A DNA stretch of 64,000 nucleotides from a candidate division WOR-3 bacterium UBA2258 (GCA_002347155.1 DDXO01000120.1:17709-81708); one strand, 5' to 3'; positions 3,305 to 49,550 are shown, counted from the stretch's first letter. The notes: generated from the sequence alone by a model not told the origin. Program-made: numbers and translations.

Positions 3305-3492
3305 TTCAGAATTCAGAAACCAGAGACCAGAATTCAGAATTCCAGGGTTCCGGGCTGCCGATGTCGCGCGGCTAATCGGGGTGAACGGGCAGGGTCCGAG
3401 GATTCGAGGATTCCAGGAGTCGAGTGGCGGAACGGACGTATCCGGTCTCGGATAAATCAGAACTCAGAAACCAGATGTCAGAATGCAGAACG
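3305..3492. repeat. cluster of short degenerate tandem repeats (CAGAAYTCAGAAACCAGA x2; GAGGATTC; GTGGTCTAGTGG)
   Basis: Near-identical strings at 3305-3349 and 3452-3492. ccgaggattcgaggattccaggagtcgag at 3396-3424 recurs in altered form at 4840-4866. Confidence 0.6.
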
Positions 3493-7845: not shown

Positions 7846-8097
7846 GGTTCCTCCGATTATTCTCAAACAGGCTAGCCGGCTCGTCATTGCTTGTCAAAGA
7901 CAATCTACCTGCGGGCTCGGGAGGGTATTCCGGGAGGGAGGCCGGTGCTCAGGTGACAAGAGGGAAGTGCTCCAGTGCTCCTCACCCCAACCCTCTCCTC
8001 TGAGAGGAGAGGGAGAGCGAAGCGAGGGTGAGAAGGGGACGCAGGAAGAGACCGGAAGCCAGGGGTAGGATGGGCTGGTCAAGCGGTCGGAAAGGGA

Positions 8098-8133
8098 AGT
8101 GGTCGAGTAGCCTAGTGGTCCAGTGGTCCAGTG
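8098..8133. repeat. (AGTGGTC)n-type repeat tract at the 3' flank of tatC
   Basis: aagtggtcgagtagcctagtggtccagtggtccagtg. A related tract at 8817-8853 flanks the 5' side (tctagtggtcaggtggtctagcggtccagtgg), and another sits at 3281-3298. Confidence 0.6.
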
Positions 8134-23280: not shown

Positions 23281-24552
23281 CTATGGCGTACGGGATTCGT
23301 GCGGGTGGGGTCGGGAACGCTCGCGCCTGTCGGCAGCTCGCCGGTCCGAAGCCGCCCTGAGTTGTGCGTTTTTCGTCGCCACGGTAGGCCGAACCCCGAC
23401 GCGCAGCCGGTCGAATCTGGAATACCGAACCTGTGGTGCAAAACCTCTCTGTCGCGGAGTTGCTCTGCCTTCGTCACCTGTGCGCTGATCGCGTGTTTCG
23501 TCTGGCTGGGCAATCCGCGCGCGCGCTTCCTGAGTCCTCACCACGGTCAGGTGTCCCAGACAGACAAGTAGTTGGAGGATGACGATGGCAGTCCTGCCGG
23601 CCGGGCCGACACGCAGATAGAATAGCGCCAGCGCCAACGAAACAAGGCCCAGACCGACATAAAAAAGCGTGACCCGCAGGTGGCTCCAGCCAGCCTGCAG
23701 GAGTCTCTCGTAGAGGTGTGTGCGGTGAGCCTGCCAGAACTTCTCGCCACGGAAGATGCGTCGCAGCAGCGTGTAGCTTGTATCGAACAGGAAGCTGCTG
23801 TAGAGAATGATGAAAAACACCATCGGTACCGACTGCCTGCCGGGCGCGGCCAGCCGGATTGCCAGCACCGACAGCACAAACCCTATTGTGAGACTGCCGA
23901 CGCCACCCATGAACACCTGGGCCGGAGGGAAGTTGTACCACAGGAACCCGAGGCAGGCCGCGGTAACGGCCACTGCAATCACGCCCTCGTACGGATGACC
24001 CGTGGCAAAGGCCGCCGCAGCGACGCCTGCGGAGTACACGACAGCCAGACTGTTCGCCAGCCCATCAGCGCCGTCGATGAAGTTGAAGAAATTCACCAGA
24101 CCCGTAATCCAGAGCACTGTCAGAGGAACTGCGGCCCACAGAAGCACGACACCGGACCCCCAAGGCAGTGAGAACTCCTGCAACACCATGCCTGCGCCAA
24201 CGACCAGCATGGCGGCTCCGGCCTGTAGGAGCAGTCGCAAGTAGGTGGGCGGGTTGCGGAAGTCGTCCCAAAGACCGACGGCTGCGACAAGCGCCGTGGC
24301 GACGGCGAAGAGGATGAGAGCCCCGCGTGGCTCCCCCTGGCTGCGCGCGCCAAGCATCAGAAGCAGGGCCAGGAAGAGCGATAGCGCAAGCCCGACACCG
24401 CCAGACGTCGCCGTTGGAATGTCGTGAGAACTGCGGCAATTGGGAACATCTATCGGTGCACCTCTGCCTACTCTCCCCAGAACAAGACGCGCACCTACGG
24501 TAGACACCGCAAGCGAAAACAAGCTCAGAACCAGTACTTTCAGTTCAAACAC
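23281..24552 (-). CDS. polyprenyl-phosphate sugar-1-phosphate transferase (glycosyltransferase family 4; WecA/MraY-like)
   Basis: Multi-TM protein with NFFNFIDGADGL (MraY/WecA signature). Confidence 0.85.
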   Translation of the reverse strand: MFELKVLVLSLFSLAVSTVGARLVLGRVGRGAPIDVPNCRSSHDIPTATSGGVGLALSLFLALLLMLGARSQGEPRGALILFAVATALVAAVGLWDDFRNPPTYLRLLLQAGAAMLVVGAGMVLQEFSLPWGSGVVLLWAAVPLTVLWITGLVNFFNFIDGADGLANSLAVVYSAGVAAAAFATGHPYEGVIAVAVTAACLGFLWYNFPPAQVFMGGVGSLTIGFVLSVLAIRLAAPGRQSVPMVFFIILYSSFLFDTSYTLLRRIFRGEKFWQAHRTHLYERLLQAGWSHLRVTLFYVGLGLVSLALALFYLRVGPAGRTAIVILQLLVCLGHLTVVRTQEARARIAQPDETRDQRTGDEGRATPRQRGFAPQVRYSRFDRLRVGVRPTVATKNAQLRAASDRRAADRRERSRPHPHESRTP

Positions 24553-25928: not shown

Positions 25929-26231
25929 ATGACTCTACCTGACATACCGATACCCAATCCTGCGGCAGTTCAGGAAGTGGGGGCTGACGGCTGGACCCTG
26001 CTGGTGAACCCGGACACCACCGGTGCGATGGCCGTGAACCAGACCGGGGCCCTTGTCTGGAAGCTGGTAGATGGCCGGCGTACGGCCGATGAGATTATTG
26101 CCGCGGTCCGAAGCCGCTTTCCGGATGCGCCGGACAACGTGGCTGAAGACGTGCGGGCACTTCTGACCAAGCTGGCCGACGAAGGGTTCGTCGGCCGGGA
26201 GATACCGCTTAAGGGGACACCTCATGAGTGA
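25929..26231 (+). CDS. PqqD-family peptide chaperone (RRE), type A, copy 1
   Basis: ...GWTLLVNPDTTGAMAVNQTGALVWKLVDGRRTADEIIAAVRSRFPDAPDNVAEDVRALLTKLADEGFV is the PqqD/RRE pattern. ~70% identical to 26498-26827. Confidence 0.8.
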   Translation: MTLPDIPIPNPAAVQEVGADGWTLLVNPDTTGAMAVNQTGALVWKLVDGRRTADEIIAAVRSRFPDAPDNVAEDVRALLTKLADEGFVGREIPLKGTPHE

Positions 26232-26508
26232 GAAGACCTATCGAGCAAACGAAGTCGTTTCTTGCGTTGACGAGGGCGAAGATGGGGCCATGCTCTATAA
26301 CCCGGACAAGGACGACACGGTCATCCTGAATCCCTCCGGCCGCAGCATCTGGGCCCTGCTGTCCGCCCCCCGAACTATTGACGAGATTGCAGGTCATCTC
26401 GTATCCGCCTATCCGAGCATCACGCGAGAGCAGGCACGGAAGGACGCGGAGCAGTTCCTAGAGTCTCTTGTCCCCGATTTCGCAACTCCCTCAACCGATG
26501 AGCACTGA
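26224..26508 (+). CDS. PqqD-family peptide chaperone, type B, copy 1
   Basis: ...AMLYNPDKDDTVILNPSGRSIWALLSAPRTIDEIAGHLVSAYPSITREQARKDAEQFLESL. Paralogue of 27060-27353. Overlaps its neighbours by 8 and 11 nt. Confidence 0.75.
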   Translation: MSEKTYRANEVVSCVDEGEDGAMLYNPDKDDTVILNPSGRSIWALLSAPRTIDEIAGHLVSAYPSITREQARKDAEQFLESLVPDFATPSTDEH

Positions 26509-26827
26509 GCCACTGCCAATCCCCGACCTGACCCTGCCCGACCCGCCGATGCCGAATCCATCCGCCGTCCGCGACGACGGGGAAGACGGCTGGACGCTCC
26601 TGGTGAATCCCGACACCGCCGGTGCAATGGCTGTGAATGCGACCGGCGTGCTCGTCTGGAGCCTCGTAGACGGCAAGCGTACTATCGAACAGATTGTTAC
26701 CGCGGTGAAGGACCGGTTTCCGGATGCGCCGGACACGGTGAGAGACGACGTGCTCGCATACCTGACGAAACTGACCGAGGAAGGCTTCATTGGTCAGGAA
26801 ATACCATTTCTAGACACGAATCGCTAG
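26498..26827 (+). CDS. PqqD-family peptide chaperone, type A, copy 2
   Basis: ATG 26498 overlaps the upstream stop (ATGAGCACTGA). GWTLLVNPDTAGAMAVNATGVLVWSLVDGKRTIEQIVTAVKDRFPDAPDTV... Confidence 0.8.
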   Translation: MSTEPLPIPDLTLPDPPMPNPSAVRDDGEDGWTLLVNPDTAGAMAVNATGVLVWSLVDGKRTIEQIVTAVKDRFPDAPDTVRDDVLAYLTKLTEEGFIGQEIPFLDTNR

Positions 26828-27059: not shown

Positions 27060-27353
27060 ATGAACAAGACTACATATCGAGTGAACGAAGTCGTGTCCTG
27101 CGCCGACGAGGACGAAGACGGAGCGATGCTCTACAATCCGGACAAGGATGAAACGGTGTTGCTGAATCCCACCGGCCGCAGCATCTGGGCTCTGCTTGGT
27201 GCCCCTCGGACCCTCGACGAGGTCGCCGACCACCTGACGGCTACCTATCCGGGCGTGACAAGTGAACAGGCTCTGCAGGATGCCGACAAGTTCATCCAAT
27301 CGCTGCTGCCGGATTTCGTACTATCCGAAGGTGGGGACGCTGATGCCCGCTAA
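27060..27353 (+). CDS. PqqD-family peptide chaperone, type B, copy 2
   Basis: MNKTTYRVNEVVSCADEDEDGAMLYNPDKDETVLLNPTGRSIWALLGAPRTLDEVADHLTATYPGVT... RBS AAGGAG. Confidence 0.75.
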   Translation: MNKTTYRVNEVVSCADEDEDGAMLYNPDKDETVLLNPTGRSIWALLGAPRTLDEVADHLTATYPGVTSEQALQDADKFIQSLLPDFVLSEGGDADAR

Positions 27354-28521
27354 GAAAGCGCGAAAGGCGAAGGTAAACCCGGCACCTCAGCCGATGCCGG
27401 ACATGACCGTGCCGCCGCCGGGTCTCATGCGATTTCCCAAGTCGGTTGACCTTTCGCTCACTGGACGCTGCAACCTCAAGTGCCGCTACTGCTTCTACGC
27501 CGACGAGATGACCGCGCTCAATGACATGCCGGCGGAGCGCTGGCACGCCTTGTTCGAAGAACTCAGCAGGCTTGGTGTTCACAATGTCTGCCTCTCGGGC
27601 GGTGAGGTCTTCACCCGCCCCGACCTGTTTGAGCTGATCGATGGTGTAATCGCGAACAAAATGCGCTACAACATACTCACCAACGGCACGCTCATCACCG
27701 AGGACACGCTGGAGGAATTCGCGAAGGGCAAGCGCCGTCTGAGGCTGAGTTCAGTCCAGGTTTCAATAGATGGGTCCTGCGCCGAGATTCATGACAAGAG
27801 CCGGCCCCCGAAGAGCTTCGACCGGGCCCTGCGCGGCCTCCGTCTGCTCAAGCAGGCCAAGTTCCCGGTGACCGTGCGCGTGACCGTCAACCGGGCTAAC
27901 GTGAACGACCTGCCCAACATCGCCCGACTGCTGCTCGAGGATGTGGGTCTTGGCGCGTTCAGCACGAACGAGGCTGACCAGATGGGTTCTGCCCGGTGCT
28001 ATGGCGACAGCACAGTCCTCACTCGCTCCGAGCGAAAGCAGGCGATGGAGACTCTGGCGAGGCTGAACAAGCAATACGGAGGCAGAATCAGCGCCACTGC
28101 CGGACCACTTGCCACGGCTACAAACTTCGCCCAGATTGAGGAGGCAATCGCGCAGGGGAAGACCGGCATGCCAGGCCGGGGTACCCTGTGTTCCTGCGGC
28201 GGGGTTTTCCAGAAACTGGCTGTACTCCACGACGGAACAATCGTCCCCTGCAATATGCTGCCCAAGCTCGTCATGGGCGTCTACGGTCACCAGTCACTCG
28301 CCGAGGTCTGGCGCAACAGCCCTGCGGTCAATGTCGTTCGCTACCGGCGCCAGATACCAATACTGTCGTTGCCCGAGTGCAAGGACTGCTCGTACGCCGG
28401 TTTCTGCACTGGCGGCTGCCCGGCCTCGGTCATGGCCAAGTTCGACAGGTTGAACGCCCGTGACCCTCTAGTCTGCTACCGCATCTTCAAAGGAGAGGAG
28501 AAACAAAGTGTCGATATGTGA
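27343..28521 (+). CDS. radical SAM / SPASM-domain peptide-modifying enzyme 1
   Basis: CNLKCRYC (CxxxCxxC) rSAM cluster. C-terminal SPASM cysteines CSCGG...PCN...CKDCSYAGFCTGGCP. Start ATG 27343 overlaps the upstream stop. Confidence 0.9.
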   Translation: MPAKKARKAKVNPAPQPMPDMTVPPPGLMRFPKSVDLSLTGRCNLKCRYCFYADEMTALNDMPAERWHALFEELSRLGVHNVCLSGGEVFTRPDLFELIDGVIANKMRYNILTNGTLITEDTLEEFAKGKRRLRLSSVQVSIDGSCAEIHDKSRPPKSFDRALRGLRLLKQAKFPVTVRVTVNRANVNDLPNIARLLLEDVGLGAFSTNEADQMGSARCYGDSTVLTRSERKQAMETLARLNKQYGGRISATAGPLATATNFAQIEEAIAQGKTGMPGRGTLCSCGGVFQKLAVLHDGTIVPCNMLPKLVMGVYGHQSLAEVWRNSPAVNVVRYRRQIPILSLPECKDCSYAGFCTGGCPASVMAKFDRLNARDPLVCYRIFKGEEKQSVDM

Positions 28522-29870: not shown

Positions 29871-29929
29871 GATGTCGCCTACCAACCAGAGAGGGCTACA
29901 GGTCCGATAAAGTACTTAGGAGGTTAGTG

Positions 29930-30190
29930 ATGCCAGAAAAAGACGAGTCCAAGTATGACGCTCCGAGAGCAGTGCGGCTTGTTGATGCTGCGAGCGCACG
30001 GGGCAGTTGTTATTCCGGGGACACTCCCGGTGAAAGCTGCTACGACGGTAGCAACGACGTGTCGTGCAATACAGGTACCGGTGCACAGGCTTACTGCGTC
30101 AACAATGGCAGTAATGCCGCCGGCTGTGACGTAGGCAACTCTCCTGCGGTGAAGGGCTGCGAAGCAGGCCTCGGAGTCCACGCGCTGTAG
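29930..30190 (+). CDS. RiPP precursor peptide A (86 aa; leader about 1-23, core with 6 regularly spaced Cys)
   Basis: MPEKDESKYDAPRAVRLVDAASA|RGSCYSGDTPGESCYDGSNDVSCNTGTGAQAYCVNNGSNAAGCDVGNSPAVKGCEAGLGVHAL. AGGAGG RBS is 6 nt upstream. Shares the leader motif YDAPRAxRLxDxAxA-RG with 32214-32498. Confidence 0.7.
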   Translation: MPEKDESKYDAPRAVRLVDAASARGSCYSGDTPGESCYDGSNDVSCNTGTGAQAYCVNNGSNAAGCDVGNSPAVKGCEAGLGVHAL

Positions 30191-30396: not shown

Positions 30397-32202
30397 TTGG
30401 TGTCCAGAACTGAGCAATCCCAGGTTTCGCAGCGCCCTTTGAGACTAGAACTGGCTGACGGCAGTCGGTGGACGATTATCGGTGCGGACGAGCCGTCAGT
30501 CCTCGTAGTGTCAGAACTGGGCAAAACCATGCGCCTTATGCCCGGCGCTGTGGGTCGCGAGCTGTACGCAGTCGTGTCTTGTGACAGACATCACGACCCG
30601 CAGAAGCCGAGCCGGAACGGCGCGGCTGTGTGCTGGCTTTCCCCGTTGCTCGATCGAAGCCTGCAGATCATCCAGATGGAGAGAATCGCGAAGTTGATTG
30701 CGTTGGAGTCTCTATCGCAGGGCGGTTTGCTTCTCCACTGTGCACTGGCCGAGTACAAGGGAGCTGGCTACGTGATGGCCGGACCCAGCGGAGTCGGCAA
30801 GAGCACCGCCAGCAATCGACTTCCGCTGCCCCATCGTTCGCTATGCGACGACCGGACCCTCGTCGTGCGAGACTCCACCGGCCAGTACTGGGCGCATCCC
30901 TGGCCGACTTGGAGCCAGTTGCACGACGGGAGAGACTCTTCGTGGCCGGTCGAAAACGCCGTCCCACTGCGGGGAATGTTCTTTCTCGGCCAATCCGCGT
31001 CTGTGCGACTCCAGCCGACAGGCCGGACGCAAACGACTGCTCTGATAATGGAATCGGCATTCGACCTTATCCTGGCGATCGCGAGGCTGTCCGAAGTCAG
31101 CGCTTCCACGAAACTCTGGGAAAACCACCTTGGTGCGGCCAAGGCTCTGGCTGCCGCAGTGCCGGCCTATTCACTTGAGATGAGCCTTGACGGCGAATTC
31201 TGGAATGAGATAGAGCAGGTACTGACCGTTATCGGCGATGACGGGGCCAGACAACCGCCTCCCGGCAAGCAGCAGTCCTCGCTCGACTTTCTCCGTGCCG
31301 GTGCACACAACTCCGAGGCGTTCCCGTCAGAAACGGGCGACGGCAGGCTGCGCGCCGTCTGTCTGGGAAGCGCCATGAACCTGACGCTGGCGGAAGCTGA
31401 CATACTCGAAGTCGAACCCTACGGCCGGCGCCGGGTTCGTCCGGGAGACGTCGTCTGCTTCATGTCTCCCGAGAATGCTGAGACGTGTGTGCGGCGTGTC
31501 GTGTCAGTCGAGGGTCGAGGGACGAGGGACGAAGGACTGCGGGACGCAATCCTGACGCGCGGTGACAACAACCCAAACAATGACCCGTGGCTCTTACGGA
31601 GCGAGGACATTGTCGGACGGGTTGTCGCCGCGCGACGCGGCTCTCGCCGGCGACCGATAGACGGAGGTCTGAGGGGACGGATGACAGCCGTACTGCTGCG
31701 CGGCCTGTGGTCGTTACGAGCATTCGGCCAAAGGGTACCTCTTCGTTTGCGGGAGGTTGCCATTAGAGTTGGCTCGCTCGAAGGCGCGCTTCCTCAGTAC
31801 CTCAGGCCCCGGCTGGTGAAGTTCAACGGACGCCACTGGGTGAAACTCAAGCTGCTGCTCGCCGAACGAGAGATCGGACGTTACGACTGCTATGCTCAGG
31901 CGTGGCGTGTTCGGCAGCCGTTTCGTATGTTGCTGGACCTGAGCAAGTTACCGGGGCGATCGATATGGAGCCGTGCCAACTTAGCGGGGGCGCGTCTGCG
32001 ACCCGCACGAAGGCACGAGGAGAACGGTCTGCTGACGGCGTCCAGGACGGCCTTTGCGGCCGGACGCGGTGATTCAGCGAAAAGAGATCCAACAGAATCG
32101 TCGGGCAGTGCCCGGCGACAGAGAAGTGCCAACCGCGCCGCCTCGACCATCGTCGAGGCGGCGGTCGAATTCGTGACCAGTGAACCGGAGAACATACCTT
32201 AA
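30397..32202 (+). CDS. HprK-related kinase (P-loop GPSGVGKST) fused to a catalytically inactive S26/signal-peptidase-like domain
   Basis: N-terminal half ...LHCALAEYKGAGYVMAGPSGVGKSTASN resembles the HPr kinase C-terminal domain. The C-terminal half aligns with the S26 peptidase at 34891-35685 (ILEVEPYGRRRVRPGDVVCFMSPE, TRGDNNPNNDPW), but it has GSAMNLTL where the paralogue has GPSMNPTL and RRV where the paralogue has HRV. Confidence 0.75.
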   Translation: MVSRTEQSQVSQRPLRLELADGSRWTIIGADEPSVLVVSELGKTMRLMPGAVGRELYAVVSCDRHHDPQKPSRNGAAVCWLSPLLDRSLQIIQMERIAKLIALESLSQGGLLLHCALAEYKGAGYVMAGPSGVGKSTASNRLPLPHRSLCDDRTLVVRDSTGQYWAHPWPTWSQLHDGRDSSWPVENAVPLRGMFFLGQSASVRLQPTGRTQTTALIMESAFDLILAIARLSEVSASTKLWENHLGAAKALAAAVPAYSLEMSLDGEFWNEIEQVLTVIGDDGARQPPPGKQQSSLDFLRAGAHNSEAFPSETGDGRLRAVCLGSAMNLTLAEADILEVEPYGRRRVRPGDVVCFMSPENAETCVRRVVSVEGRGTRDEGLRDAILTRGDNNPNNDPWLLRSEDIVGRVVAARRGSRRRPIDGGLRGRMTAVLLRGLWSLRAFGQRVPLRLREVAIRVGSLEGALPQYLRPRLVKFNGRHWVKLKLLLAEREIGRYDCYAQAWRVRQPFRMLLDLSKLPGRSIWSRANLAGARLRPARRHEENGLLTASRTAFAAGRGDSAKRDPTESSGSARRQRSANRAASTIVEAAVEFVTSEPENIP

Positions 32203-32213
32203 GGAGGTACGAC

Positions 32214-32498
32214 ATGGATAATCAGAAGAGCCCGGAGCCGAACGAGCGCGTTCGCTCTGGATATGATGCACCACGTGCCCAGAGACTGAGCGACGTGGCA
32301 CCGGCACGCGGCGATGACTGCGGTCCAGGCAACGCCGCAGATCCTGGGCAATGCAGTGGCAACGGCAGTGCTGCTCAGAATACCTGCACCAATGGCGGCC
32401 AGGCGGTTGCCTGCAAGGACAACGGCAACATAGCGACTCTCTCGTGTTATGGCGGGAGTGGCGCAACCGAGTGCGGTAACGGAAACTCAGCCATATAG
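32214..32498 (+). CDS. RiPP precursor peptide B (94 aa; leader about 1-31, core with 6 regularly spaced Cys)
   Basis: MDNQKSPEPNERVRSGYDAPRAQRLSDVAPA|RGDDCGPGNAADPGQCSGNGSAAQNTCTNGGQAVACKDNGNIATLSCYGGSGATECGNGNSAI. AAGGAGG RBS overlaps the kinase stop codon. Confidence 0.7.
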   Translation: MDNQKSPEPNERVRSGYDAPRAQRLSDVAPARGDDCGPGNAADPGQCSGNGSAAQNTCTNGGQAVACKDNGNIATLSCYGGSGATECGNGNSAI

Positions 32499-32647
32499 GC
32501 ATCGGATAAGGCAGAGAGTCGAAACCAAGACTGACTGCTGTCGGGTTGGCTGACCCTTCGCGGGGAGCAGGCCGGCGTAGGCAACCGGGACGCACGCGGG
32601 GAGGCGTCTGCTAAACGTCCCCTTCCTGCAGCACTTGGTAAGATAGA

Positions 32648-32694
32648 CCGGGCCGGAGTCCCGCAATCCGGCCCGGTTGGTTCTTGTTGCTTGC
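32648..32694 (+). terminator. rho-independent terminator after precursor B
   Basis: accgggccgga-gtcccgcaa-tccggcccggt followed by tggttcttgttgcttg. Confidence 0.6.
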
Positions 32695-32982
32695 GAAGTA
32701 CCCTGCTGCAGGCCTTGGCCGGAATGGCTGTACGCCCGCGTGGTGGCAAAGGGGCCAGTGGTGACCAAAAGAGGTGAACCGCTGAGTCCCCGCCACGGAG
32801 TGGGACTTCAGACGCAAGATCCGGAGCGCCTGCTGTCTGACAGTAATCGCATCGGCCAATCAACATTGAACCCCTGGTTCCCCCACTCCGTCCCTTTGCT
32901 GCATTCGAGCTAGATAATGTCGGTTCTGGGGTACTGAGATGACTTGCCCGGTATATCTGCTTTGGTAGACTGCTGACGGCCG

Positions 32983-34845
32983 ATGGATTCACAACCAGCA
33001 GAAGACTCGCGACCCGGGATGGTCGAGACCCTGAAACAGGGTCTGCATCTGGGTCGCGCGCTTCGTCTCGTCTGGTCCATCGCTCCGGGCTGGGCGGTGA
33101 TGAACCTTGTCCTGGTTTTCGTGCAGGGATTCATGCCTCTGCTTGCACCCTACTTCATGAAGCGCACCATCGATGCCCTGCAGGCCGCCATGGCGATGCA
33201 GACCGGCCTTACCGCCTTTCGCCCGGTCCTATTCTGGGTCATTCTTGCCGCCGCGGCAGCGTTACTGTCAGCGCTGCTTAACTCATTCTCCGGGCTGGCC
33301 GGCCAGTACCAGTCCATGGTTTTTTCCGACAAGGTGACCGACATTGTGCACAGCCAGTCGGTCGCGGTTGACCTTGAGTACTACGAAAATCCCAGCTACT
33401 ACAACACCATGCAGCGAGCTCAGGTCGAGGCACATTCCCGGCCCATCGGTGTTGTCAACCGCCTCGTCACCATCGGCAGGAGCATGGTTTCGCTCGTCGG
33501 GGTCGCCGGCTTGCTCCTCGCTTTCAATCCGCTGGTCGCACTGGCCCTCTTCTGTGTGGCCTTGCCCGGAGCGCTTGTGCAGTCGGTCTTTGCGCGCCGC
33601 CAGTACCGCCTTGAACTGGCGCAGACCGAGAAAGAACGCCAGGCGTCATACTATCACTTCATGCTGACCGGTTCGTGGTTTGCCAAGGAACTGCGGTTGT
33701 TCAACCTGGGGTCTTTGTTTCGGACCCGGTTCCAAGGCCTGCGTCAGCAACTACGCGGAACGAGACTGGCCTTGTCCCGGCGGCGCACCGTTGCCGGTCT
33801 GCTGGCCGGGTCCCTGACCTCAGGGGCTATCTTCGGCTCCCTGGCCTTCGTTGCCTATCAGGCCTACCTGGGGAAAACCACGCTCGGCAGTCTCGTGATG
33901 TACTACTCCATTTTCCAGCTCGCAGTCGGCTCATTCTCGAGCGTACTGAGCGGAGTGGCCGGACTCTACGAAGACAACCTCTTCCTCACCAATTTCTACA
34001 AATTCATGGACCTGAAGCCGCGGGTCATGGTGCCGGCGAGTCCGGCCCCGACTCCGACCCGAATCAGTCAGGGCGTCGCGTTCCATGACGTGCACTTCGC
34101 GTACCCGAGCGACTCCCGGACGGTGCTGGATGGGGTCAACCTGAATATCGCTCCGGGCCAGGTTGTTGCGCTGGTTGGCGCAAACGGCTCTGGCAAGACC
34201 ACGCTGGTTAAGCTCCTGTGCCGGCTCTACGACCCGGACTCGGGCACTATCACTGTTGACGGCACCGACCTCCGACGTCTGGACCCGGTGGGATGGCGCC
34301 GGAAAGTCAGCGTCATCTTGCAGGACTATGTTCAGTATGGCATGACAGCCTGGGAGAACATCTGGATGGGCGACGCGGAAAGAGAGCCGGACCGGAGCCG
34401 AATCACCCGGGCGGCCGAACTCTCCGGCGCTGACTCGGCAATCAGGAAACTGCCCCAGGGGTATGACACTCCGCTGGGCTTTCAGTTCAAGCGCGGCCGG
34501 GAGCTGAGCATCGGCGAGTGGCAGAAAGTGGCTCTGGCTCGTGCGTTCCTCCGCGATTCGGAACTGGTCGTCCTGGACGAGCCCACCAGCTCACTCGACC
34601 CTTTGGCCGAGGCCGAGGTATTCGACCACTTCCGACGAGCTATACGGGGCAGAAGCGCGGTGCTCATCAGCCATCGCTTCTCCACCGTGAAGATGGCCGA
34701 CTACATCTATGTCCTCGACCACGGTCGGGTCGCGGAGTCCGGCACCCACCAGGAACTCTTCGACCGGGGCGGCCTCTATGCCCATCTCTACTCAGTCCAG
34801 GCCGCCCGGTATCAGGCCCAGCCAACAGACCAGCGTGCAGGCTGA
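32983..34845 (+). CDS. ABC exporter, fused permease/ATP-binding protein
   Basis: N-terminal 6-TM domain. Walker A GANGSGKTT, signature LSIGEWQKVALARAF, Walker B LVVLDEPTSSLD. Confidence 0.9.
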   Translation: MDSQPAEDSRPGMVETLKQGLHLGRALRLVWSIAPGWAVMNLVLVFVQGFMPLLAPYFMKRTIDALQAAMAMQTGLTAFRPVLFWVILAAAAALLSALLNSFSGLAGQYQSMVFSDKVTDIVHSQSVAVDLEYYENPSYYNTMQRAQVEAHSRPIGVVNRLVTIGRSMVSLVGVAGLLLAFNPLVALALFCVALPGALVQSVFARRQYRLELAQTEKERQASYYHFMLTGSWFAKELRLFNLGSLFRTRFQGLRQQLRGTRLALSRRRTVAGLLAGSLTSGAIFGSLAFVAYQAYLGKTTLGSLVMYYSIFQLAVGSFSSVLSGVAGLYEDNLFLTNFYKFMDLKPRVMVPASPAPTPTRISQGVAFHDVHFAYPSDSRTVLDGVNLNIAPGQVVALVGANGSGKTTLVKLLCRLYDPDSGTITVDGTDLRRLDPVGWRRKVSVILQDYVQYGMTAWENIWMGDAEREPDRSRITRAAELSGADSAIRKLPQGYDTPLGFQFKRGRELSIGEWQKVALARAFLRDSELVVLDEPTSSLDPLAEAEVFDHFRRAIRGRSAVLISHRFSTVKMADYIYVLDHGRVAESGTHQELFDRGGLYAHLYSVQAARYQAQPTDQRAG

Positions 34846-34890
34846 AGGAAAGGTGAAGGTCCAGGTAGAGGTAGAGGCAAAGGCAGAGGA
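34846..34890. repeat. intergenic spacer made entirely of purine-rich hexamer repeats
   Basis: gaaggaaaggtgaaggtccaggtagaggtagaggcaaaggcagagga lies between the ABC stop and the S26 start. Confidence 0.6.
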
Positions 34891-35685
34891 ATGACTGAGG
34901 GACAGCAGCGGACGGCAGGCCCCGGGAAGGGAGAACCAGATGCGCTTGCTTCGAACAGGCCGGGCTGGACGGCCGACTTCCCTTCGGTTGAGTCAATCGT
35001 AGTCGACGGTCGGCGGCGCGTCGTCTATACCGGGCCCAGCATGAATCCGACCCTGCGCGTGCCGGACATCCTGTGGGTAGAACCATATGGGAAAAGGCCT
35101 GTACGAGCCGGAGATGTCGTCTGCTTCGCGTCGCCTGAGCTTGACACCAACATCGTACACCGCGTCATCTCCGTCCGTCCTTCGTCCCCAGTCCCTGGTC
35201 CCTCGTCTCCCGTCTCCGGTCTCCGGTCTTCCGTCCTCGGTCTTCCGTCTCCGGTCGCCATCCGGACGCAGGGCGACAATAACCCATTGGCCGACACCCG
35301 GGTTCTTGCGCCTGCTGACCTATTGGGGCGGGTAGTGGCGGCGCAGCGCGGCACGCGGCTCCGTTCCATCCATGGTGGCCACGCCGGCCTGATGGTCGCT
35401 TGGAGTGTAAAGCTGGGAAAGGCGATCTGGGGGGTCGTTGCCGGCGTCGCGAGCGCCGTCTACCAGAGCCTCATCCAGGGAAGTCGGTTTGGCTTCCTGC
35501 TGCCCGGCGGCCTGAGACCCAGACTGGTCTCCTTCAAAGGACGTGACGCACCGATCTTCAGGGTGCTTATGGGCGGTCGGACGGTCGGACACTATGACTA
35601 TCGCTACCATCAGTGGCACATCCGGCGACCATTCCGCTTGTTCGTGGACGAACGTACCCTACCCGACCCGAAGTCCAAGGACTAG
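34891..35685 (+). CDS. signal peptidase I-like S26 peptidase, SipW/Sec11 (Ser/His) type, probably the leader peptidase
   Basis: GPSMNPTL (box B Ser) and IVHRVISV (box D His) both intact; RTQGDNNPLAD box. In-frame insert of CCGTCT-family repeats (PSSPVPGPSSPVSGLRSSVLGLPSPV) at 35170-35258. Confidence 0.75.
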   Translation: MTEGQQRTAGPGKGEPDALASNRPGWTADFPSVESIVVDGRRRVVYTGPSMNPTLRVPDILWVEPYGKRPVRAGDVVCFASPELDTNIVHRVISVRPSSPVPGPSSPVSGLRSSVLGLPSPVAIRTQGDNNPLADTRVLAPADLLGRVVAAQRGTRLRSIHGGHAGLMVAWSVKLGKAIWGVVAGVASAVYQSLIQGSRFGFLLPGGLRPRLVSFKGRDAPIFRVLMGGRTVGHYDYRYHQWHIRRPFRLFVDERTLPDPKSKD

Positions 35686-35732: not shown

Positions 35733-37055
35733 ATGACTAGCGCGGTTGAGACACTGTTCCAGTACCTCTGTCCTAAGTCCCCCGTCCCTCGTCCCCCGTC
35801 CGACCAGGAACCTGAAACCAGTGACTTGGTACTTCATCCGTCCAACCAGGAACCTGAAACCAGTGACTTGGTACTTCATCCGTCCAACCAGAAACCTGAA
35901 ACTAGTAACCAAGAACTTTTGGGCGTTGACTGGAACGCCGTCATCGACACGGCTGCCCACAACAGCCTCGAGCCGCTGCTGTTCAAGCGTCTCAAAGAGA
36001 GCGGCACGCGGGCCTATGTCCCAGCAGGCTCCTGGGAAAGGCTGCGACAGGCCTACTTCAGCAGCGCCCAGAAAAACCTGCACCTCTATCGAGAACTCCG
36101 GCCGGTACTTCGCCGCCTGCGCGACTCCGGCATCCCGGTGATTGTCCTGAAGGGGGCCTTTCTGGCCGAGGCGGTTTACGGCGACGTCGCACTCCGGCCG
36201 ATGTGCGACGTCGACCTCATGGTACCGAAAGCAGAGCTGCCGAAAGCCCAGACAATCCTGCTCGACATGGGCGGCGTTCAGAAGGACCCCACAGGAAACG
36301 AGGCGTTCTGGAGGGAACACCACCACCCTCCGCCGACCTACCTCCGCGACCTCTCCATTGAGCTTCACTGGACCATCGCCGACCCCACCGGGCCCGTCAA
36401 AATAGACCCTGCCGGGCTCTGGTACAGGGCGCAACGAGCTACGATAGCGGGCGTCGAACTGCTGGCGTTATCCCCTGAAGACCTGTTGGTCCACCTCTGT
36501 GTGCACTTCGGCGGTGAACACCATCTCAACGGATTGCGCTCCTTCTGCGACATCACTGAGACTATTCGCCTCCGCGGCGGAGACATGGACTGGCAGCAGG
36601 TCGTAGACTCGACTCGCGAGTGGCTTGCTGCAAGATACGTAGGCCTGACACTCCATCTCGCCCGACGCCTGGTGGGCGCGGGCGTACCGGATGATGTGCT
36701 TGAACGGTTAGTCCCCGGTGGCATTGACGAGCACGTACTGGAATTGGCGAGGCAGCTCGTACTTGCCGACACCGGTTATGCCCCGTGGTCACCGGTTTCC
36801 GGCCTCGTAGGCGCCAGGTCATTCAATGACAAGACAAAGCTGCTGTGGCAGCGGGTCTTCCTTTCACGTGACGAAATGGCCAGGGTCTATCCCGGCTCTC
36901 GCGAATCGCGCTTTCTCTGCCGCTACTACGCGCTGCGGGTCAGGGATGTCATACGGAATCGTGGGGCGACCGTAGTGAAGCTGGCCAGGAGTCCTGACTT
37001 CGCAGAGAGCACTACGGAGAGTGCGGTCGTGGCCAACTGGCTGAGATCCGGGTAG
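35733..37055 (+). CDS. nucleotidyltransferase family protein (NTP_transf_5-like, as found in lasso/sactipeptide clusters)
   Basis: ...GIPVIVLKGAFLAEAVYGDVALRPMCDVDLMVP... The ORF N-terminus is encoded by a 45-bp tandem repeat (EPETSDLVLHPSNQ x2.5); the true start may be downstream of the repeat. Confidence 0.7.
   Translation: MTSAVETLFQYLCPKSPVPRPPSDQEPETSDLVLHPSNQEPETSDLVLHPSNQKPETSNQELLGVDWNAVIDTAAHNSLEPLLFKRLKESGTRAYVPAGSWERLRQAYFSSAQKNLHLYRELRPVLRRLRDSGIPVIVLKGAFLAEAVYGDVALRPMCDVDLMVPKAELPKAQTILLDMGGVQKDPTGNEAFWREHHHPPPTYLRDLSIELHWTIADPTGPVKIDPAGLWYRAQRATIAGVELLALSPEDLLVHLCVHFGGEHHLNGLRSFCDITETIRLRGGDMDWQQVVDSTREWLAARYVGLTLHLARRLVGAGVPDDVLERLVPGGIDEHVLELARQLVLADTGYAPWSPVSGLVGARSFNDKTKLLWQRVFLSRDEMARVYPGSRESRFLCRYYALRVRDVIRNRGATVVKLARSPDFAESTTESAVVANWLRSG
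35805..35905. repeat. 45-bp tandem direct repeat, ~2.5 copies
   Basis: ccaggaacctgaaaccagtgacttggtacttcatccgtccaac x2, then a degenerate partial copy. Confidence 0.75.
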
Positions 37056-37223: not shown

Positions 37224-38213
37224 TCACAGCTTCGGGTCGCCATCACCTGACACCGGTTCCCGGCGTGACTTATGTTGGCTGCGGCGGATATCCTCAAGCA
37301 TCAGTACAGCGCGGGCGGCAGCTACGCCAGGCACGCGTGGTAGCCGTGCGAGCAGTCCGCGCAGCGGGTATGCAAGCGCCACAGCCAGAGCTGCCTGTGG
37401 CCGGTAGGCGATGCCTAGCTGGCAGTGGATCAGCCGGAACCCGAGTCTCTGCAGGACATCGTTGTAGCTGGTGTCGTGTAGAACCGTACGAGTACCGTTC
37501 AGGAGCTTCATACCGCGCTTCAAGACGTACTCCTCCTGAAGAGTGCGCGTGAGCGCGAACACGACACGATTTCGGAGATGGTGAGGATGATAATACAAGT
37601 ATGACTGATGCACCCACTCGCCGCCGATGATTCTCTCGCAAAAGGCCGCCAGTTCACCCGCGACCAGTACAGCCCAGTGTTCAAAGGGACCGTCGGCCTT
37701 GTTGAGCATATACTCGGACCACGCCCATTCATGCCCCGGCCGCAGCCCCCGGCTCGACATGGCGGCGACGTAGCACGAGTAGCCTCGCTCGGCCAGCCAG
37801 CCGGGCTCGGCTCTTTGTACGGAACATCGCTCATACCCGATGTGGACGTGACGCCGGTCTCTCTTGCCAAGAGCCTCCAAGTCCGGGACGCTGTCGCACA
37901 CTACGTAATACCAGCCTGTTGGCTCCTGCGAAATGTGACCGGCGTAGCGCAGCAGCCACGCACGTGACTCGCGGAGTAGCCGGACGGCCTCATCGTTCTG
38001 TAGGACCACCGGGACCGGTACGTCGTCCACGGGCAGAAGTACATGTCTGTTGACGCACCATACGATTCCGCCGCCCGAATAGAGGCGTATGCCGCGTGCA
38101 CGCAGGTAATCTACCCGACTGGGCCGGTTTGCTGCTCCCGCGCTTCCTGGAACTCCGCCCGCACTACCCAACTGCAGACCTCCCTGGCGTGTGTGTGAAC
38201 GCAAACCGTACAC
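37224..38213 (-). CDS. hypothetical protein (possibly FemAB/GNAT-like), last gene of the polysaccharide locus
   Basis: Coding-like. No family assigned. Confidence 0.3.
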   Translation of the reverse strand: MYGLRSHTRQGGLQLGSAGGVPGSAGAANRPSRVDYLRARGIRLYSGGGIVWCVNRHVLLPVDDVPVPVVLQNDEAVRLLRESRAWLLRYAGHISQEPTGWYYVVCDSVPDLEALGKRDRRHVHIGYERCSVQRAEPGWLAERGYSCYVAAMSSRGLRPGHEWAWSEYMLNKADGPFEHWAVLVAGELAAFCERIIGGEWVHQSYLYYHPHHLRNRVVFALTRTLQEEYVLKRGMKLLNGTRTVLHDTSYNDVLQRLGFRLIHCQLGIAYRPQAALAVALAYPLRGLLARLPRVPGVAAARAVLMLEDIRRSQHKSRREPVSGDGDPKL

Positions 38214-38285: not shown

Positions 38286-39560
38286 CTAGTGGACTACCCT
38301 CCGGTCGAGCGTAGCGGCGACGTGTTCAATGTGCCTGACCATGGCTCCGTACACCTTGTCGGGATGGAGCTCAGTTTCATAAAGCCGAATCGCCTGTCTC
38401 CGCATCTCCGCGAGCCGCGACGCGTCCGCAGCGAGGTCCGAGATAGTGCGGGCGAGAACCTCCGGGGCACGATTGGGGTAGGTGACCCCGCAGCCAGAGC
38501 GCCGCAGCAATTGCTCAAGCGAGCCCTCCACGCTCGACAGAATAGGCAATCCCGCAGACAAGTACTCAATCACCTTGATTGGATAGCTTCTGACCAAAGA
38601 ATATGTGCTTGCGTACGGAACAAGCCCGACGGATGCCAGGCGCAGGAGGGCCCAAATCTTCGCCCGGTCCACCCAGCCGGGCAGCATCACATTCTGGCAT
38701 TCGCGAGCCAGATTGCGGTAGTACTCAAGACTGTCGCCGGTCCCGCAGAGCACGAACCTGCATTTGGGGCAACTCTCTCTCAACTGCCGGGCGGCCAGAA
38801 TAACTGCATCGAGGTCAAGCAGCCGGCGCGTTCCCAGGCTGCCGGCCAAGCACAGCACGAAGTCCGATTCGCGCAGACCACGGGAGTGCCAGTATCCTCG
38901 GGCCTCGGTGAGCTGGGCATCGGTGGGAGTCCACGTATCGTTGGCCAGCGGGAAGCTCCCATCCAGTTCCGACACGTCCCTGCCGGCGCAGGACGCGCCC
39001 CATTCAACAAATGCCGGCGTAATCCCCAGCAGCCCGGTGGCCTTCCGACATGCCTGGGCTGCCATCCTGAAGTAGGGAGTCAGGGCAACCCTGCCGATGC
39101 CCCTGAGCCAATCCGGGACAACGTCCAACATGACTCTTGGCCACAGGTCCCTTATGTCCAATACAACCGGCACGTCCCTCTCTCTCCCGTACCGCGTCGC
39201 CTCATAGCTCATGTCGAGGGTCGGGAACGAACAGACGATGACATCAGGCCTGGCCTCGGTCCGGGCGTACCTGCGAAACTTGCGGCCGATAAGCCAGTGG
39301 TTCACAACTCGCGCGACCGAGACATTCTTGCTGTACGATGTCGCGTGCAGCAGCCGGTAGGCAAGCTGCGGGCTCACGTCAACTCGCGAGTCCCTGTCGG
39401 CCTCGTGCCGCTTTCGCGCGTGGTCGAAGGTCGAACCCCACCAGAGCACGTGATGACCGGCTTCCATCAGGTGGTCGGCGATGTTGCCCGCACGGAACCT
39501 CCGATCTTCCGGATGGAAGTAGGGAAGGGGATCGCCGATGTCGATCAGCCAGACGCGCAT
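38286..39560 (-). CDS. glycosyltransferase family 4
   Basis: MRVWLIDIGDPLPYF...; C-terminal E-x7-E-like region ...YPIKVIEYLSAGLPILSS. Confidence 0.85.
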   Translation of the reverse strand: MRVWLIDIGDPLPYFHPEDRRFRAGNIADHLMEAGHHVLWWGSTFDHARKRHEADRDSRVDVSPQLAYRLLHATSYSKNVSVARVVNHWLIGRKFRRYARTEARPDVIVCSFPTLDMSYEATRYGRERDVPVVLDIRDLWPRVMLDVVPDWLRGIGRVALTPYFRMAAQACRKATGLLGITPAFVEWGASCAGRDVSELDGSFPLANDTWTPTDAQLTEARGYWHSRGLRESDFVLCLAGSLGTRRLLDLDAVILAARQLRESCPKCRFVLCGTGDSLEYYRNLARECQNVMLPGWVDRAKIWALLRLASVGLVPYASTYSLVRSYPIKVIEYLSAGLPILSSVEGSLEQLLRRSGCGVTYPNRAPEVLARTISDLAADASRLAEMRRQAIRLYETELHPDKVYGAMVRHIEHVAATLDRRVVH

Positions 39561-39785
39561 GACCCTAGTTCACTTCCCTGGAACCGAGACTGAAACCGCG
39601 AACGAGAGACACGAAGCGACAAGAAGTCATCCACTGATTACGCAGATTACACCGATGGTCTCAAGCCCGAGTCTGCGGAATCCGTGGCATCTGTGGATAT
39701 CCGCTCTGGCTCCCATTCCGTGTCTCAACTGCGACGGCAAGACCGGGCGCCCGCCGAATCTGCCGGACGAAACCTCCACGTAGTC

Positions 39786-40511
39786 CTACGGTTGGTTGGG
39801 GGCCATTTCCTCAACTGTAGAGGCCTTGGCTGCGTCGTTGAGGACACGGCGCGACTCCGGCCCGCAGTTGAAGAGCAGGTCTATGGCTGCGAGATTCGGG
39901 ATGAACGGTTCGCCCTGCTGGGCGTAAACCGGGTGAGCCAGCCGCACAAACCGGTGGTGAAGGCCCTGCCTCCGGAACTCCTCCACATCTACGTAGGACT
40001 TCCCACCCCAGCCTGAGACGTAGGTGTCGCATCCTGCCTTTCGGCACATGTCGATGAGCATCGCCGTCTTCTCACCAGTGACATTGCACTGCGAGCTACT
40101 CAGAACCTCCTTCTCTATGCCGAAGCACTTCATCAGGTAGTGCGTTATGGCGAGGCTGAGGTCAACGAGACGCGGCGAGGCCTTCGTATAGACCTCCTCG
40201 AAGAAACCGCGGTGGTCCTCGAAGAAAGGCGCATTGTGGTAGTTGAGGGATATAGTCCGCCAGTGCTTCCGCGCCCAGGGCAGGGAGTTATCTATGAGTA
40301 CTTCGTCCGTCCTCTGGTAGAACCTGCCTTTGGTCAGCACGGGGACGGTCAGGAGAATCCGGTCGGTGCGGCCGCGAACGTAGTTCCGATTCTGGAACAG
40401 CTTCTTTTCAAACTGCGCGTGGTCCACGAACATGAACTTGTCGCACTGGGTCATCTTATAGAAAACGCCGAGATAGGGCAGGTACGCGGGTTGGTGGCCG
40501 GCGAGTTTCAA
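39786..40511 (-). CDS. WbqC-family protein
   Basis: MKLAGHQPAYLPYLGVFYKM... is the WbqC N-terminal signature (cf. 57015-57770). Confidence 0.7.
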   Translation of the reverse strand: MKLAGHQPAYLPYLGVFYKMTQCDKFMFVDHAQFEKKLFQNRNYVRGRTDRILLTVPVLTKGRFYQRTDEVLIDNSLPWARKHWRTISLNYHNAPFFEDHRGFFEEVYTKASPRLVDLSLAITHYLMKCFGIEKEVLSSSQCNVTGEKTAMLIDMCRKAGCDTYVSGWGGKSYVDVEEFRRQGLHHRFVRLAHPVYAQQGEPFIPNLAAIDLLFNCGPESRRVLNDAAKASTVEEMAPNQP

Positions 40512-40514
40512 GAC

Positions 40515-41258
40515 TCAAGCTCCCGCATCCCGGACGCCCGAGTTGCCGTCCTGCGGCTGCGCCGGCCCGTGCCGGTCGGATTGACCCGGGCGTCCACTGG
40601 TCCTGAATACCAGCCGGGACACCTCAAAGCACTCGGCGTACTCGGCCCCGATCTGCACGCCACGGGTACGTGCCAGCGAGCGGATGAACTGCTCGTCGAC
40701 ATACTCCCGCCCCAACTGCGACACGTAGCACCGGAGCGCCCGCAGCTTGGCGTCCATGTGCCGGGCCTCAAGGAAGAAGAAAGCGTTCGTGCTGAACGAG
40801 AGGTTGTTCCAGGGCACTTCGTAGCCGAGGATGGTTGTCTTCTTGAATGCCCGGAAGCCCTCCTGGGCTACAACCTGGTGGTCCTGGTGCGTGTCGGTGG
40901 AGCTGGGGAGGAACACCAAGTCCGGCTCGATCCTCCGGTTCAATTCCACCAGCCGTTCAAGTATCTGCTGTCGGAATTCCGGGAAGCGCCGCACCGGGAA
41001 GCGTTCGACCACGAGGTGCCTTTCGTCAAGAGCAAGCTCGCGCGTTGCCTTTACGACTTCGTCTGCGAGCACGTCGCGCGGCAGCCCGGCCGGCACCGAA
41101 TCCTCGGCTATCGACAAGGCCGCGTAGTGCACATCCGAGCCGTCCTCAATCAGCCGCGCAATCGTCCCGCCGCATCCGAACTCTCCGTCGTCAGTATGGG
41201 GCGCGAGAACAAGCACTCGGTCTGCAAACATGGTTTCAGACCTCCTTTCCTGTAACAT
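40515..41258 (-). CDS. PIG-L/LmbE family deacetylase
   Basis: VLVLAPHTDDGEFGCGGT and HQDH motifs. Confidence 0.8.
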   Translation of the reverse strand: MLQERRSETMFADRVLVLAPHTDDGEFGCGGTIARLIEDGSDVHYAALSIAEDSVPAGLPRDVLADEVVKATRELALDERHLVVERFPVRRFPEFRQQILERLVELNRRIEPDLVFLPSSTDTHQDHQVVAQEGFRAFKKTTILGYEVPWNNLSFSTNAFFFLEARHMDAKLRALRCYVSQLGREYVDEQFIRSLARTRGVQIGAEYAECFEVSRLVFRTSGRPGQSDRHGPAQPQDGNSGVRDAGA

Positions 41259-49548: not shown

Positions 49549-49550
49549 GT

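Follow-up and report, generated by a model that had tools for sequence, protein, structure and literature searches.

A 64,000-nucleotide stretch of DNA from the candidate division WOR-3 bacterium UBA2258 (GCA_002347155.1, DDXO01000120.1:17709-81708), called the window here, carries two copies of an S26 peptidase domain of the Sec11/SipW type within a single co-directional gene run that surrounds them both. Judged by its genes, the run is a SynChlorMet (SCM)-type peptide-maturation cassette, in the order four PqqD-like open reading frames (ORFs), ScmE, ScmF, precursor peptide 1, an ScmC-S26 fusion, precursor peptide 2, an ATP-binding cassette (ABC) exporter, a stand-alone S26 peptidase and a nucleotidyltransferase. 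The S26 domain of the fusion has lost the Ser and His of the catalytic triad and appears to be a maintained pseudo-peptidase, and its stand-alone paralogue has an intact triad. The features that carry this conclusion are the following.

30397-32202, plus strand: ScmC-S26 fused protein, 601 residues, recognized by TIGR04249 and S26 homology
30397-31245, plus strand: ScmC kinase-like (K) domain, residues 1-283, recognized by TIGR04249, alignment to HprK/P, AlphaFold2 (AF2) modelling and Foldseek
31246-31338, plus strand: linker between the K domain and the peptidase (P) domain, residues 284-314, predicted to be disordered (predicted local distance difference test score, pLDDT, of 31-44 in AF2)
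31339-31656, plus strand: predicted dead S26 (Sec11-type) core, residues 315-420, with Ala326 at 31372-31374, Arg366 at 31492-31494 and Asp390 at 31564-31566
31657-31953, plus strand: C-terminal extension shared with the stand-alone protein, residues 421-519, recognized by BLASTP homology, with AF2 helix 424-456 and strands 471-505
31954-32202, plus strand: tail specific to the dead clade, residues 520-601 (82 residues), and stop codon, predicted to be disordered (pLDDT about 30)
34891-35685, plus strand: stand-alone S26 (Sec11-type) peptidase, 264 residues, predicted to be soluble, with intact Ser50/His90/Asp129

The two S26 domains

Residues 309-519 of the fused protein align with residues 30-258 of the stand-alone protein with 42% identity (BLASTP, E 1e-41), and the paralogy proposed by the first-pass annotation, whose quoted strings lie within this alignment, therefore stands. 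Its extent does not: the shared stretch covers 211 residues of the fused protein and not the C-terminal ~250, residues 520-601 being without a counterpart in the stand-alone protein. The homology continues past the S26 core into a long helix and a small beta-barrel that are found in both copies. The curated S26 models PF10502 and TIGR02228, which might have placed the catalytic residues elsewhere, keep the same register in the two proteins, with fused residues 324-373 on profile positions 30-82 and stand-alone residues 46-95 on positions 28-80. Alignment to human SEC11C and SEC11A sets Ser50 (GPSM) of the stand-alone protein and Ala326 (GSAM) of the fused protein on the Sec11 nucleophile Ser, His90 (VHRV) and Arg366 (VRRV) on the Sec11 His, and Asp129 and Asp390 (GDNN) on the triad Asp. 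The Sec11 triad was identified by mutagenesis as Ser56/68, His96/108 and Asp122/134 (bioRxiv 10.1101/2020.11.11.378711). A deposited SEC11A variant, 9rjb, has Ala at the same Ser. The replacement of the box-B Ser by Ala and of the box-D His by Arg, noticed in the first reading of the sequence, is confirmed by this alignment and by the codons, which are GCC, CGG and GAC at 31372, 31492 and 31564 in the fused gene and AGC, CAC and GAC at 35038, 35158 and 35275 in the stand-alone gene.

The Sec11/SipW type of both domains is likewise borne out by the profile register, the SEC11 alignment, and the predicted folds with their Foldseek matches. For the fused domain, TIGR02228 gives E 1.8e-10, PF10502 alone stays below its cut-off (16.1 versus 22.9 bits), the AF2 model has a pLDDT of about 80-90 and Foldseek retrieves 7p2q_A (E 8e-5) and 7p2p_A with a probability of 1.00; the model of the entire fused protein has a predicted template-modelling score of 0.53, and in view of this score and of the disordered linker it was read domain by domain. 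An S26 homologue by sequence and fold that lacks the Ser/His pair, the fused domain is by these standards a pseudo-peptidase, and the combination Ala/Arg/Asp (A/R/D) at the three triad positions is fixed in 19 of the 19 members of its clade, termed here the dead clade. Ser325, next to Ala326, was considered as a substitute nucleophile and rejected, since it is not conserved, relatives having R, T, N or H at this position.

The stand-alone protein scores 24.6 bits against PF10502, above the 22.9-bit gathering score, and reaches E 9.1e-12 and 45.1 bits with TIGR02228, under the 51.85-bit equivalog cut-off; it is also under the cut-off of NF046067. It is thus an S26 family member and not an equivalog of the housekeeping signal peptidase. 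Ser50, His90 and Asp129 are invariant in 58 aligned family members, and the AF2 model (mean pLDDT 80) displays the S26/LexA-like beta fold. No transmembrane-like hydrophobic segment was found in the protein, whose sole helix (residues 163-196) is Arg-rich with a maximum 19-residue Kyte-Doolittle mean of ~1.0 across the clade, and no transmembrane segment is predicted in any clade of the SCM S26 family. This, together with a disordered and polar N-terminus, argues that the stand-alone protein is not a classical signal peptidase. Anchoring in the membrane beside the exporter through the long helix was considered and rejected, the hydropathy being below the transmembrane range across the clade. 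Judged by their sequences, these proteins make up an S26 subfamily of their own, dedicated to SCM-type cassettes and distinct from the housekeeping signal peptidase, in which no membrane segment is predicted.

The loop between boxes D and E carries short tandem DNA repeats in both copies, a 21-nt unit present 3.5 times at 35177-35256 of the stand-alone gene, giving a Pro/Ser-rich insert (loop residues 96-123), and a 7-nt unit present 5.3 times at 31509-31546 of the fused gene; the loops of relatives differ, and this segment looks like a repeat-driven variable loop.

Loss of the catalytic residues has left most of the fused domain intact. Alignment columns with at least 85% conservation in the active fused clade as well as in the stand-alone clade number 75; the dead clade leaves 64 of them as they are, relaxes three and changes eight, the last including Ser to Ala (100%) and His to Arg (100%). 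Among those kept are M-x-P-T-L, G-D-V-V-C, R-V, T-x-G-D-N-N and the downstream Asp, and the motif residues that line the S26 active-site region are conserved. Divergence relative to the K domain is 1.24 for the dead P domain compared with 1.02 for active fusions, and Nei-Gojobori ratios of nonsynonymous to synonymous substitution (dN/dS) over seven locus pairs are 0.23-0.42 for the dead domain, 0.19-0.34 for the K domain and 0.21-0.37 for the stand-alone P domain. A full-length, in-frame domain is present in every one of the 19 distinct A/R/D sequences, whose mean pairwise identity is 66%. By these measures the dead domain is under purifying selection, and the pseudo-peptidase of the first-pass annotation is, by the kept columns, the divergence ratio and dN/dS, a conserved domain and no decaying remnant. 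A relic, made redundant by the duplication and now being lost, would account for the variable catalytic positions of one sub-lineage (S/D/G and R/S/H/Q), for the somewhat greater distance of the dead domains from outgroups (39% versus 43-44% identity) and for the ScmC paralogues that lack the peptidase core (see below); it is contradicted by the dN/dS values, the column conservation and the full-length frames, and is rejected on the first two of these, with very little probability left to it.

Between the window and locus L080 (7657-9492), the dead P domain (31339-31953) has a synonymous divergence of 0.77, ~2.7 times that of the K domain (0.28) and about twice that of the stand-alone copy (0.37), for which recombination or gene conversion of the dead P segment is a possible cause.

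Dead-clade fusions end in tails of 80-100 residues, and active fusions have no such tail, with a median of 25 residues after the RPFRL motif. Within the dead clade, the motifs LPxPxxWSxxSF, PETVSxAGxGDS, LSGSA and ExAVxFVT are partly conserved; dN/dS of the tail is about 1 between the window and L080, the closest pair, and the tail is nearly neutral in this comparison.

Relatives, precursors and genes of the cassette

The first-pass annotation had judged the repurposing of the domain to be recent and cluster-internal, a view that the relatives of the fused protein do not sustain. Its 114 recovered homologues are mostly 490-620 residues long; the closest ~20 all have G-x-A-M and R-R-V, and most others have G-x-S-M and V-H-R-V. 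A set of 159 loci from scans of metagenome and GTDB contigs, whose ORFs were annotated with K and P hidden Markov models (HMMs) made for this analysis, spans WOR-3, KSB1, Methanothrix, Methanoregulaceae, Methanospirillum, Desulfobacterota, Acidobacteriota, Lentisphaerota, Verrucomicrobiota, Brocadiaceae, Nitrospirota, Chloroflexota and others. In these loci K and P are always paired, either fused, as K-P or P-K, or encoded by neighbouring genes in one order or the other, nearly always with Ser/His/Asp, and the typical order is [precursor], PqqD, ScmE, ScmF, [precursor], K-P, ABC, NTP_transf_5. A profile search of 1.84 billion representative proteins returned 734 full-length family members at E <= 1e-30; among 141 newly retrieved top-ranked representatives, the 131 complete ones all have Ser/His/Asp, the remaining 10 being truncated at the N-terminus. 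Across the loci surveyed, SCM cassettes normally have an intact peptidase, either joined to ScmC in one protein or encoded beside it, and defective fused copies are confined to a WOR-3-type lineage.

The fusion is thus ancestral over many phyla, and the age of the duplication points the same way. A neighbour-joining tree of P domains (200 bootstraps) groups the stand-alone copies in one clade (40 sequences, 89.5% support) and the A/R/D fused domains in another (19 sequences, 100%); together with the active WOR-3-type fused domains they make up an ingroup with 67.5% support, within which the order of the three clades has 17-27% support. Mean identities are 47% between stand-alone and dead domains, 51% between stand-alone and active fused domains and 47% between dead and active fused domains, the stand-alone clade being as close to the active fused domains as to the dead ones. 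The tree and these identities place the duplication within the WOR-3-type lineage, long ago. A recent duplication is rejected in view of the 42% identity of the window's two copies, the age of the clades and the two differences between the nucleophile codons (AGC versus GCC).

Defective fused copies are accompanied by intact ones. After dereplication at 95%, an intact stand-alone P gene lies within a few kilobases downstream in eight of nine assessable defective cassettes, compared with an extra copy in one of 68 intact cassettes (Fisher p = 3.8e-9). In the defective cassettes it is always situated between the ABC and NTP_transf_5 genes. Added look-ups of P0087 (S/R/D), P0077 (D/Q/D) and P0026 (G/H/D) each gave the order ABC, S26, NTP_transf_5, and protein pairs from equal-sized contigs (P0002/P0117, P0004/P0127, P0014/P0138, P0015/P0131 and P0035/P0156) are consistent with the same arrangement. 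Left out of account among these look-ups were P0020, P0045 and P0091, whose contigs end too soon after the fused gene, and P0036, whose gene list has no peptidase call in the 5.9 kb downstream. The defects at the Ser/His/Asp positions make up at least ten combinations, ARD, SRD, GHD, DQD, DHD, DSD, SSD, GRD, TSD and NHD, with A/R/D having arisen in two separate clades, and such heterogeneity suggests that, given a second copy, the residues were lost more than once. A second precursor at the window's position, after the fused gene, is found in the dead-clade loci L001-L005 and L080.

Some genomes have tandem cassettes of two to three units (L032/L160, L083, L025, L165+L166). Locus L032 has an intact-triad K-P gene followed by a full cassette with an S/R/D K-P gene and a stand-alone P gene and, on the opposite strand, a frameshifted peptidase adjoining NTP_transf_5; L165 and L166 apparently overlap, which would put two defective K-P genes one after the other (the first S/R/D, the second T/S/D).

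Other architectures of the peptidase family were also found. The peptidase is N-terminally fused to NTP_transf_5 in P0285, P0319 and P0329 (609-657 residues), and PqqD is N-terminally fused to the peptidase in P0264 and P0342 (349-360 residues); these fusions indicate a physical association with leader recognition and tailoring. A third class of ScmC has the K domain and the helix-barrel extension alone, the S26 core being gone (P0103-P0112; L075, L077, L106, L109, L111, L123, L164 at 2186-3358 and L011 at 7416-8783). Genes of this class often have NTP_transf_5 after and a precursor before them, and sometimes no radical-SAM genes nearby.

The probable substrates are encoded beside the cassette. 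Iterative searches from two small ORFs of the window found homologous precursors beside the cassette in more than 100 loci, with the leader motif Y-E-x-P-x4-L-x-[DE]-x3-[GA]-x-[GA]; G or A stands at +14 from the conserved Tyr in 108 of 118 precursors and at +16 in 105 of 118, and the first core Cys follows 1-3 residues later. The leader of precursor 1 reads ...KYDAPRAVRLVDAASARG and is followed by a Cys-rich repeat core, that of precursor 2 reads ...GYDAPRAQRLSDVAPARG and is followed by a Cys-rich core, and the junctions are ...ASARG|S and ...APARG|D. The AxA of the first reading, taken as ASA or APA in these leaders, is replaced by the family-wide [GA]-x-[GA] two residues later, which is ARG in both. 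S26 peptidases classically require small residues at -3 and -1. The small residues at the leader end, together with the PqqD-peptidase fusions, make leader removal the most likely job of the family, and the S26 family is most likely to be the leader peptidase of the SCM pathway. Cleavage by the intact paralogue, as first suggested, is also a reasonable reading of the sequences, given that defective fused copies almost always have an intact stand-alone partner.

It is conceivable that the fused copy is not dead, other residues carrying out the hydrolysis, or that the family is not a leader peptidase and cleaves itself in the manner of LexA/UmuD, for example releasing the kinase. Leader cleavage is itself deduced from sequence, which leaves some room for such schemes; they face the lack of a conserved alternative nucleophile (Ser325 included), the Ala or Gly at the nucleophile position in many members, the conservation of the small-x-small motif at a fixed leader distance, the PqqD-peptidase fusions that point to leader-bound substrates, and the split-gene versions, which have nothing to self-release. 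We regard them as highly improbable.

The fused protein scores 148.2 bits against TIGR04249 (ScmC), above the curated 125-bit cut-off, has ScmD-, ScmE- and ScmF-like genes immediately upstream and has relatives annotated PF27840 (ScmC); its closest genomic relative, from a candidate division WOR-3 metagenome-assembled genome, is 75% identical. The K domain aligns with L. casei HprK/P across His114, the GxSGVGKS P-loop (G129-T137) and the A/C-D-D-R motif (Asp151-Asp152), and His114, G134-T137 and Asp151-Asp152 are invariant across 43 homologues. Its AF2 model has a pLDDT above 90, with PEPCK and HprK/P as Foldseek matches. The HPr kinase-type P-loop features, namely the His, the P-loop, the Asp-Asp pair and the PEPCK/HprK fold, are all present. 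HprK HMM matches are weak (PF07475, 13.5 versus 33.3 bits), and scores so far under the family cut-offs mark the domain as a distant HprK relative. From its conserved residues, the kinase-like domain looks competent.

The other genes of the cassette are listed below.

25929-26231, 26224-26508, 26468-26827 and 27060-27353, plus strand: four tandem PqqD-like ORFs (leader-recognition element), PF05402 E 1e-13 to 1e-17
27262-28521, plus strand: radical S-adenosylmethionine (SAM)/SPASM maturase of the ScmE type, TIGR04250 E 1.9e-116 and 388.9 bits (just below the 400-bit cut-off), with PF04055 and PF13186
28508-29686, plus strand: radical SAM/SPASM maturase of the ScmF type, TIGR04251 E 2.1e-101 and 339.9 bits (cut-off 400)
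29927-30190, plus strand: precursor peptide 1, 87 residues, Cys-rich, of the family adjoining SCM cassettes in more than 100 loci
32214-32498, plus strand: precursor peptide 2, 94 residues, Cys-rich, of the same precursor family
32983-34845, plus strand: ABC exporter (transmembrane domain and ATPase), PF00005 E 3e-32, PF00664 and MsbA-/bacteriocin-exporter-like NCBIfam matches
35733-37055, plus strand: NTP_transf_5 nucleotidyltransferase-family protein, PF14907 E 4e-63, a usual cassette component

The last PqqD-like ORF is a weak match to ScmD (TIGR04248), and ScmD, ScmE and ScmF of the window all score under the equivalog cut-offs. The four PqqD ORFs alternate A-B-A-B, as though one PqqD pair had been duplicated, related cassettes usually having one or two, and the cluster carries two precursor types alongside them. 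The NTP_transf_5 gene adjoins the cassette in most related loci; in the window, a 42-nt tandem repeat at 35796-35906 (2.6 copies, 95% matches) gives a repeated 14-residue unit, ...NQEPETSDLVLHPS..., at the N-terminus of its product. Polysaccharide-synthesis genes lie beside the cassette (38286-41258 and 23281-24552), encoding GT1 and GT4 glycosyltransferases, WbqC and a PIG-L deacetylase, and L160 and L162 have GNVR/ParA-type chain-length kinase, SLBB export and OmpA genes downstream; synteny of this kind may be conserved in the lineage. A 329-residue ORF on the minus strand (37224-38213) immediately follows the cassette and has no Pfam match at E <= 0.1, and two large ORFs, at 14035-17742 (plus strand, 1235 residues) and 47734-49833 (minus strand, 699 residues), have none at E <= 0.001.

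Proposed role of the inactive domain

The reading that we favour, with moderate confidence, makes the free copy the leader peptidase and the fused copy a retained, non-cutting domain that grips the leader-core junction or docks the complex. Precursors would be held by the PqqD, kinase and transferase machinery while an S26 peptidase cuts after [GA]-x-[GA]. In the window, the stand-alone Ser50/His90/Asp129 enzyme would cut after ...ARG in both precursors, and the fused Ala326/Arg366 domain, unable to cut, would have been kept since the kinase-like enzyme needs it. The dead domain would most likely grip the leader-core junction, presenting the precursor to the kinase, and would perhaps shield the junction until maturation is complete; it may also dock, holding the complex together. 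Junction binding is favoured because the inactivation is confined to two catalytic residues and because SipA and HlyB, discussed below, offer precedents. Binding or tethering of the leader by the dead domain, as the first-pass annotation supposed, is plausible by analogy, and the data are accommodated about equally well by a role in structure or docking only.

Such a structural role is the main rival. The dead domain would bind no peptide and, with the helix-barrel extension, would stabilize or oligomerize the kinase or dock PqqD, the nucleotidyltransferase or the exporter. The attachment of the extension alone to ScmC in the core-less paralogues listed above agrees with this, as do the fusions of the peptidase to K, PqqD or NTP_transf_5 in different genomes, which suggest a multi-protein complex, and the fact that the conserved motif residues are also structural. 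On the other hand, the dead clade conserves the whole core, including the motifs near the active site and the triad Asp, at a dN/dS like that of the active paralogue, and systematic replacement is found at the two catalytic positions only. A pure scaffold is a tentative alternative, and one that we consider rather unlikely.

Several observations weigh against the favoured reading. Peptide binding by the dead domain is deduced from motif conservation only, which could equally reflect the stability of the fold, and the existence of core-less ScmC paralogues means that the peptidase core can be lost, which speaks for docking as the role of part of the domain at least. The dead copy of the window departs twice from the consensus of its clade, with AMNLT for AMNPT and ILTRGDNN for IRTRGDNN. 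The single exception to the association, the independent A/R/D lineage L161 (P0092), has no second copy in the 9 kb downstream and 2.3 kb upstream that are visible. The association test ignores phylogeny, and the stand-alone copies are a single clade. Experimental characterization of SCM components was not found in the searchable literature.

A more elaborate role, which we regard as doubtful, is that of a junction reader ordering maturation: the dead domain would shield [GA]-x-[GA] during the kinase, nucleotidyltransferase and radical-SAM steps and then pass the finished peptide on to the stand-alone protease next to the exporter. Separate sub-lineages show the change from His to Arg, and the Ala/Arg pair as a whole arose on two occasions; Arg itself could have been selected, for example through pairing with the retained Asp or binding of a phosphate added by the kinase, rather than mere loss having occurred.

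The two copies could also work as a pseudoenzyme-enzyme pair, the dead domain forming a heterodimer with the stand-alone protein and recruiting or regulating it, so that cleavage is coupled to the kinase step and perhaps, the active peptidase gene lying beside that of the ABC exporter, to export. The strict co-occurrence of defective fused and intact stand-alone copies would fit this, as would the same branching order of both clades for the four loci sampled for both (WIN, L080, L004 and L001) and the partly conserved motifs of the extra dead-clade tail, which could be a docking peptide. Dimerization of S26 domains in the SCM family is without evidence, however, and the tail is near neutral between the two closest relatives (dN/dS about 1); we hold such a pair to be improbable.

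Comparison with known systems

The Sec11, SipW and archaeal type I signal peptidases (MEROPS S26B) share with the SCM peptidases boxes B, D and E (G-x-S-M-x-P-T, V-H-R-V and G-D-N-N); the Ser, His and Asp of the stand-alone protein are in register with theirs, and the likely substrate motif is also small at -1 and -3. The SCM peptidase differs in lacking a transmembrane anchor, in its family-specific long helix and small beta-barrel, and in being encoded inside a cytoplasmic radical-SAM cassette, often fused to its enzymes. Its substrates are presumably precursor leaders and not Sec signal peptides, and the fused copy of the window lacks the Ser and His.

The cassette models TIGR04248-TIGR04251 describe the same system: ScmC is above its cut-off, ScmE and ScmF are the best matches and the gene order agrees. 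The ScmC model covers 292 positions, and the models as listed do not include the peptidase, precursor, exporter or nucleotidyltransferase. Neither the curated models nor the searchable literature yielded the constant presence of the peptidase, the motif at which it probably cuts, or the lineage in which a dead fused copy is paired with a live free one. Cassettes of the SCM type are common among anaerobic bacteria and methanogenic archaea, and the present analysis proposes for them a likely leader peptidase, a family of precursors and the probable site motif of cleavage, with the peptidase physically tied to ScmC.

Among lasso-peptide pathways, those of PsmK/PadeK and PsmN resemble the SCM cassette in combining an HprK-like kinase, an 'uncharacterised nucleotidyltransferase', a PqqD-type binder, a leader peptidase and an ABC exporter (PMC6993621). 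Their leader peptidase is split into B1 (PqqD-like) and B2 (protease), and the D158A/D159A double mutant of PsmK is inactive (PMC6993621); by motif, D158/D159 corresponds to the invariant Asp151-Asp152 of ScmC in the window. The lasso protease is a transglutaminase-like Cys peptidase and not an S26 enzyme, the core chemistry is macrolactam formation as opposed to radical-SAM/SPASM modification of Cys-rich repeats, and neither a kinase-protease fusion nor a dead protease is described there.

Two inactive peptidases offer the closest functional parallels. SipA (LepA) of Streptococcus pyogenes (PDB 4n31) is an inactive signal-peptidase homologue needed for pilus polymerization (PMC4049620). Like the fused domain, it has the S26 fold with both catalytic residues replaced and the peptide-binding cleft conserved, and acts non-catalytically alongside active enzymes (PMC4049620). 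It differs in being of bacterial Ser/Lys-type origin, extracellular, membrane-anchored and unfused, in its substitutions (Asp and Gly, not Ala and Arg), and in belonging to an unrelated pathway, in which the loss was independent. The C39-like domain (CLD) of HlyB-type ABC exporters is a leader-peptidase domain in a degenerate state, its nucleophile gone, that remains joined to an ATP-using enzyme; it reportedly recruits or tethers the substrate and does not cleave it (PMC6363468). That domain has a papain-like Cys peptidase fold, is fused to a transporter and not to a kinase, and has no active paralogue in its cluster.

The lineage of the window is a natural separation-of-function experiment, in which a free paralogue has taken over catalysis and the fused domain persists, so that what the peptidase domain does apart from catalysis can be examined in isolation. 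This is likely to be of moderate interest to specialists in peptide natural products and pseudoenzymes. Should the dead domain indeed bind the leader-core junction, it would extend the principle of the HlyB CLD and of SipA to another protease fold and provide a handle for reconstituting the pathway.

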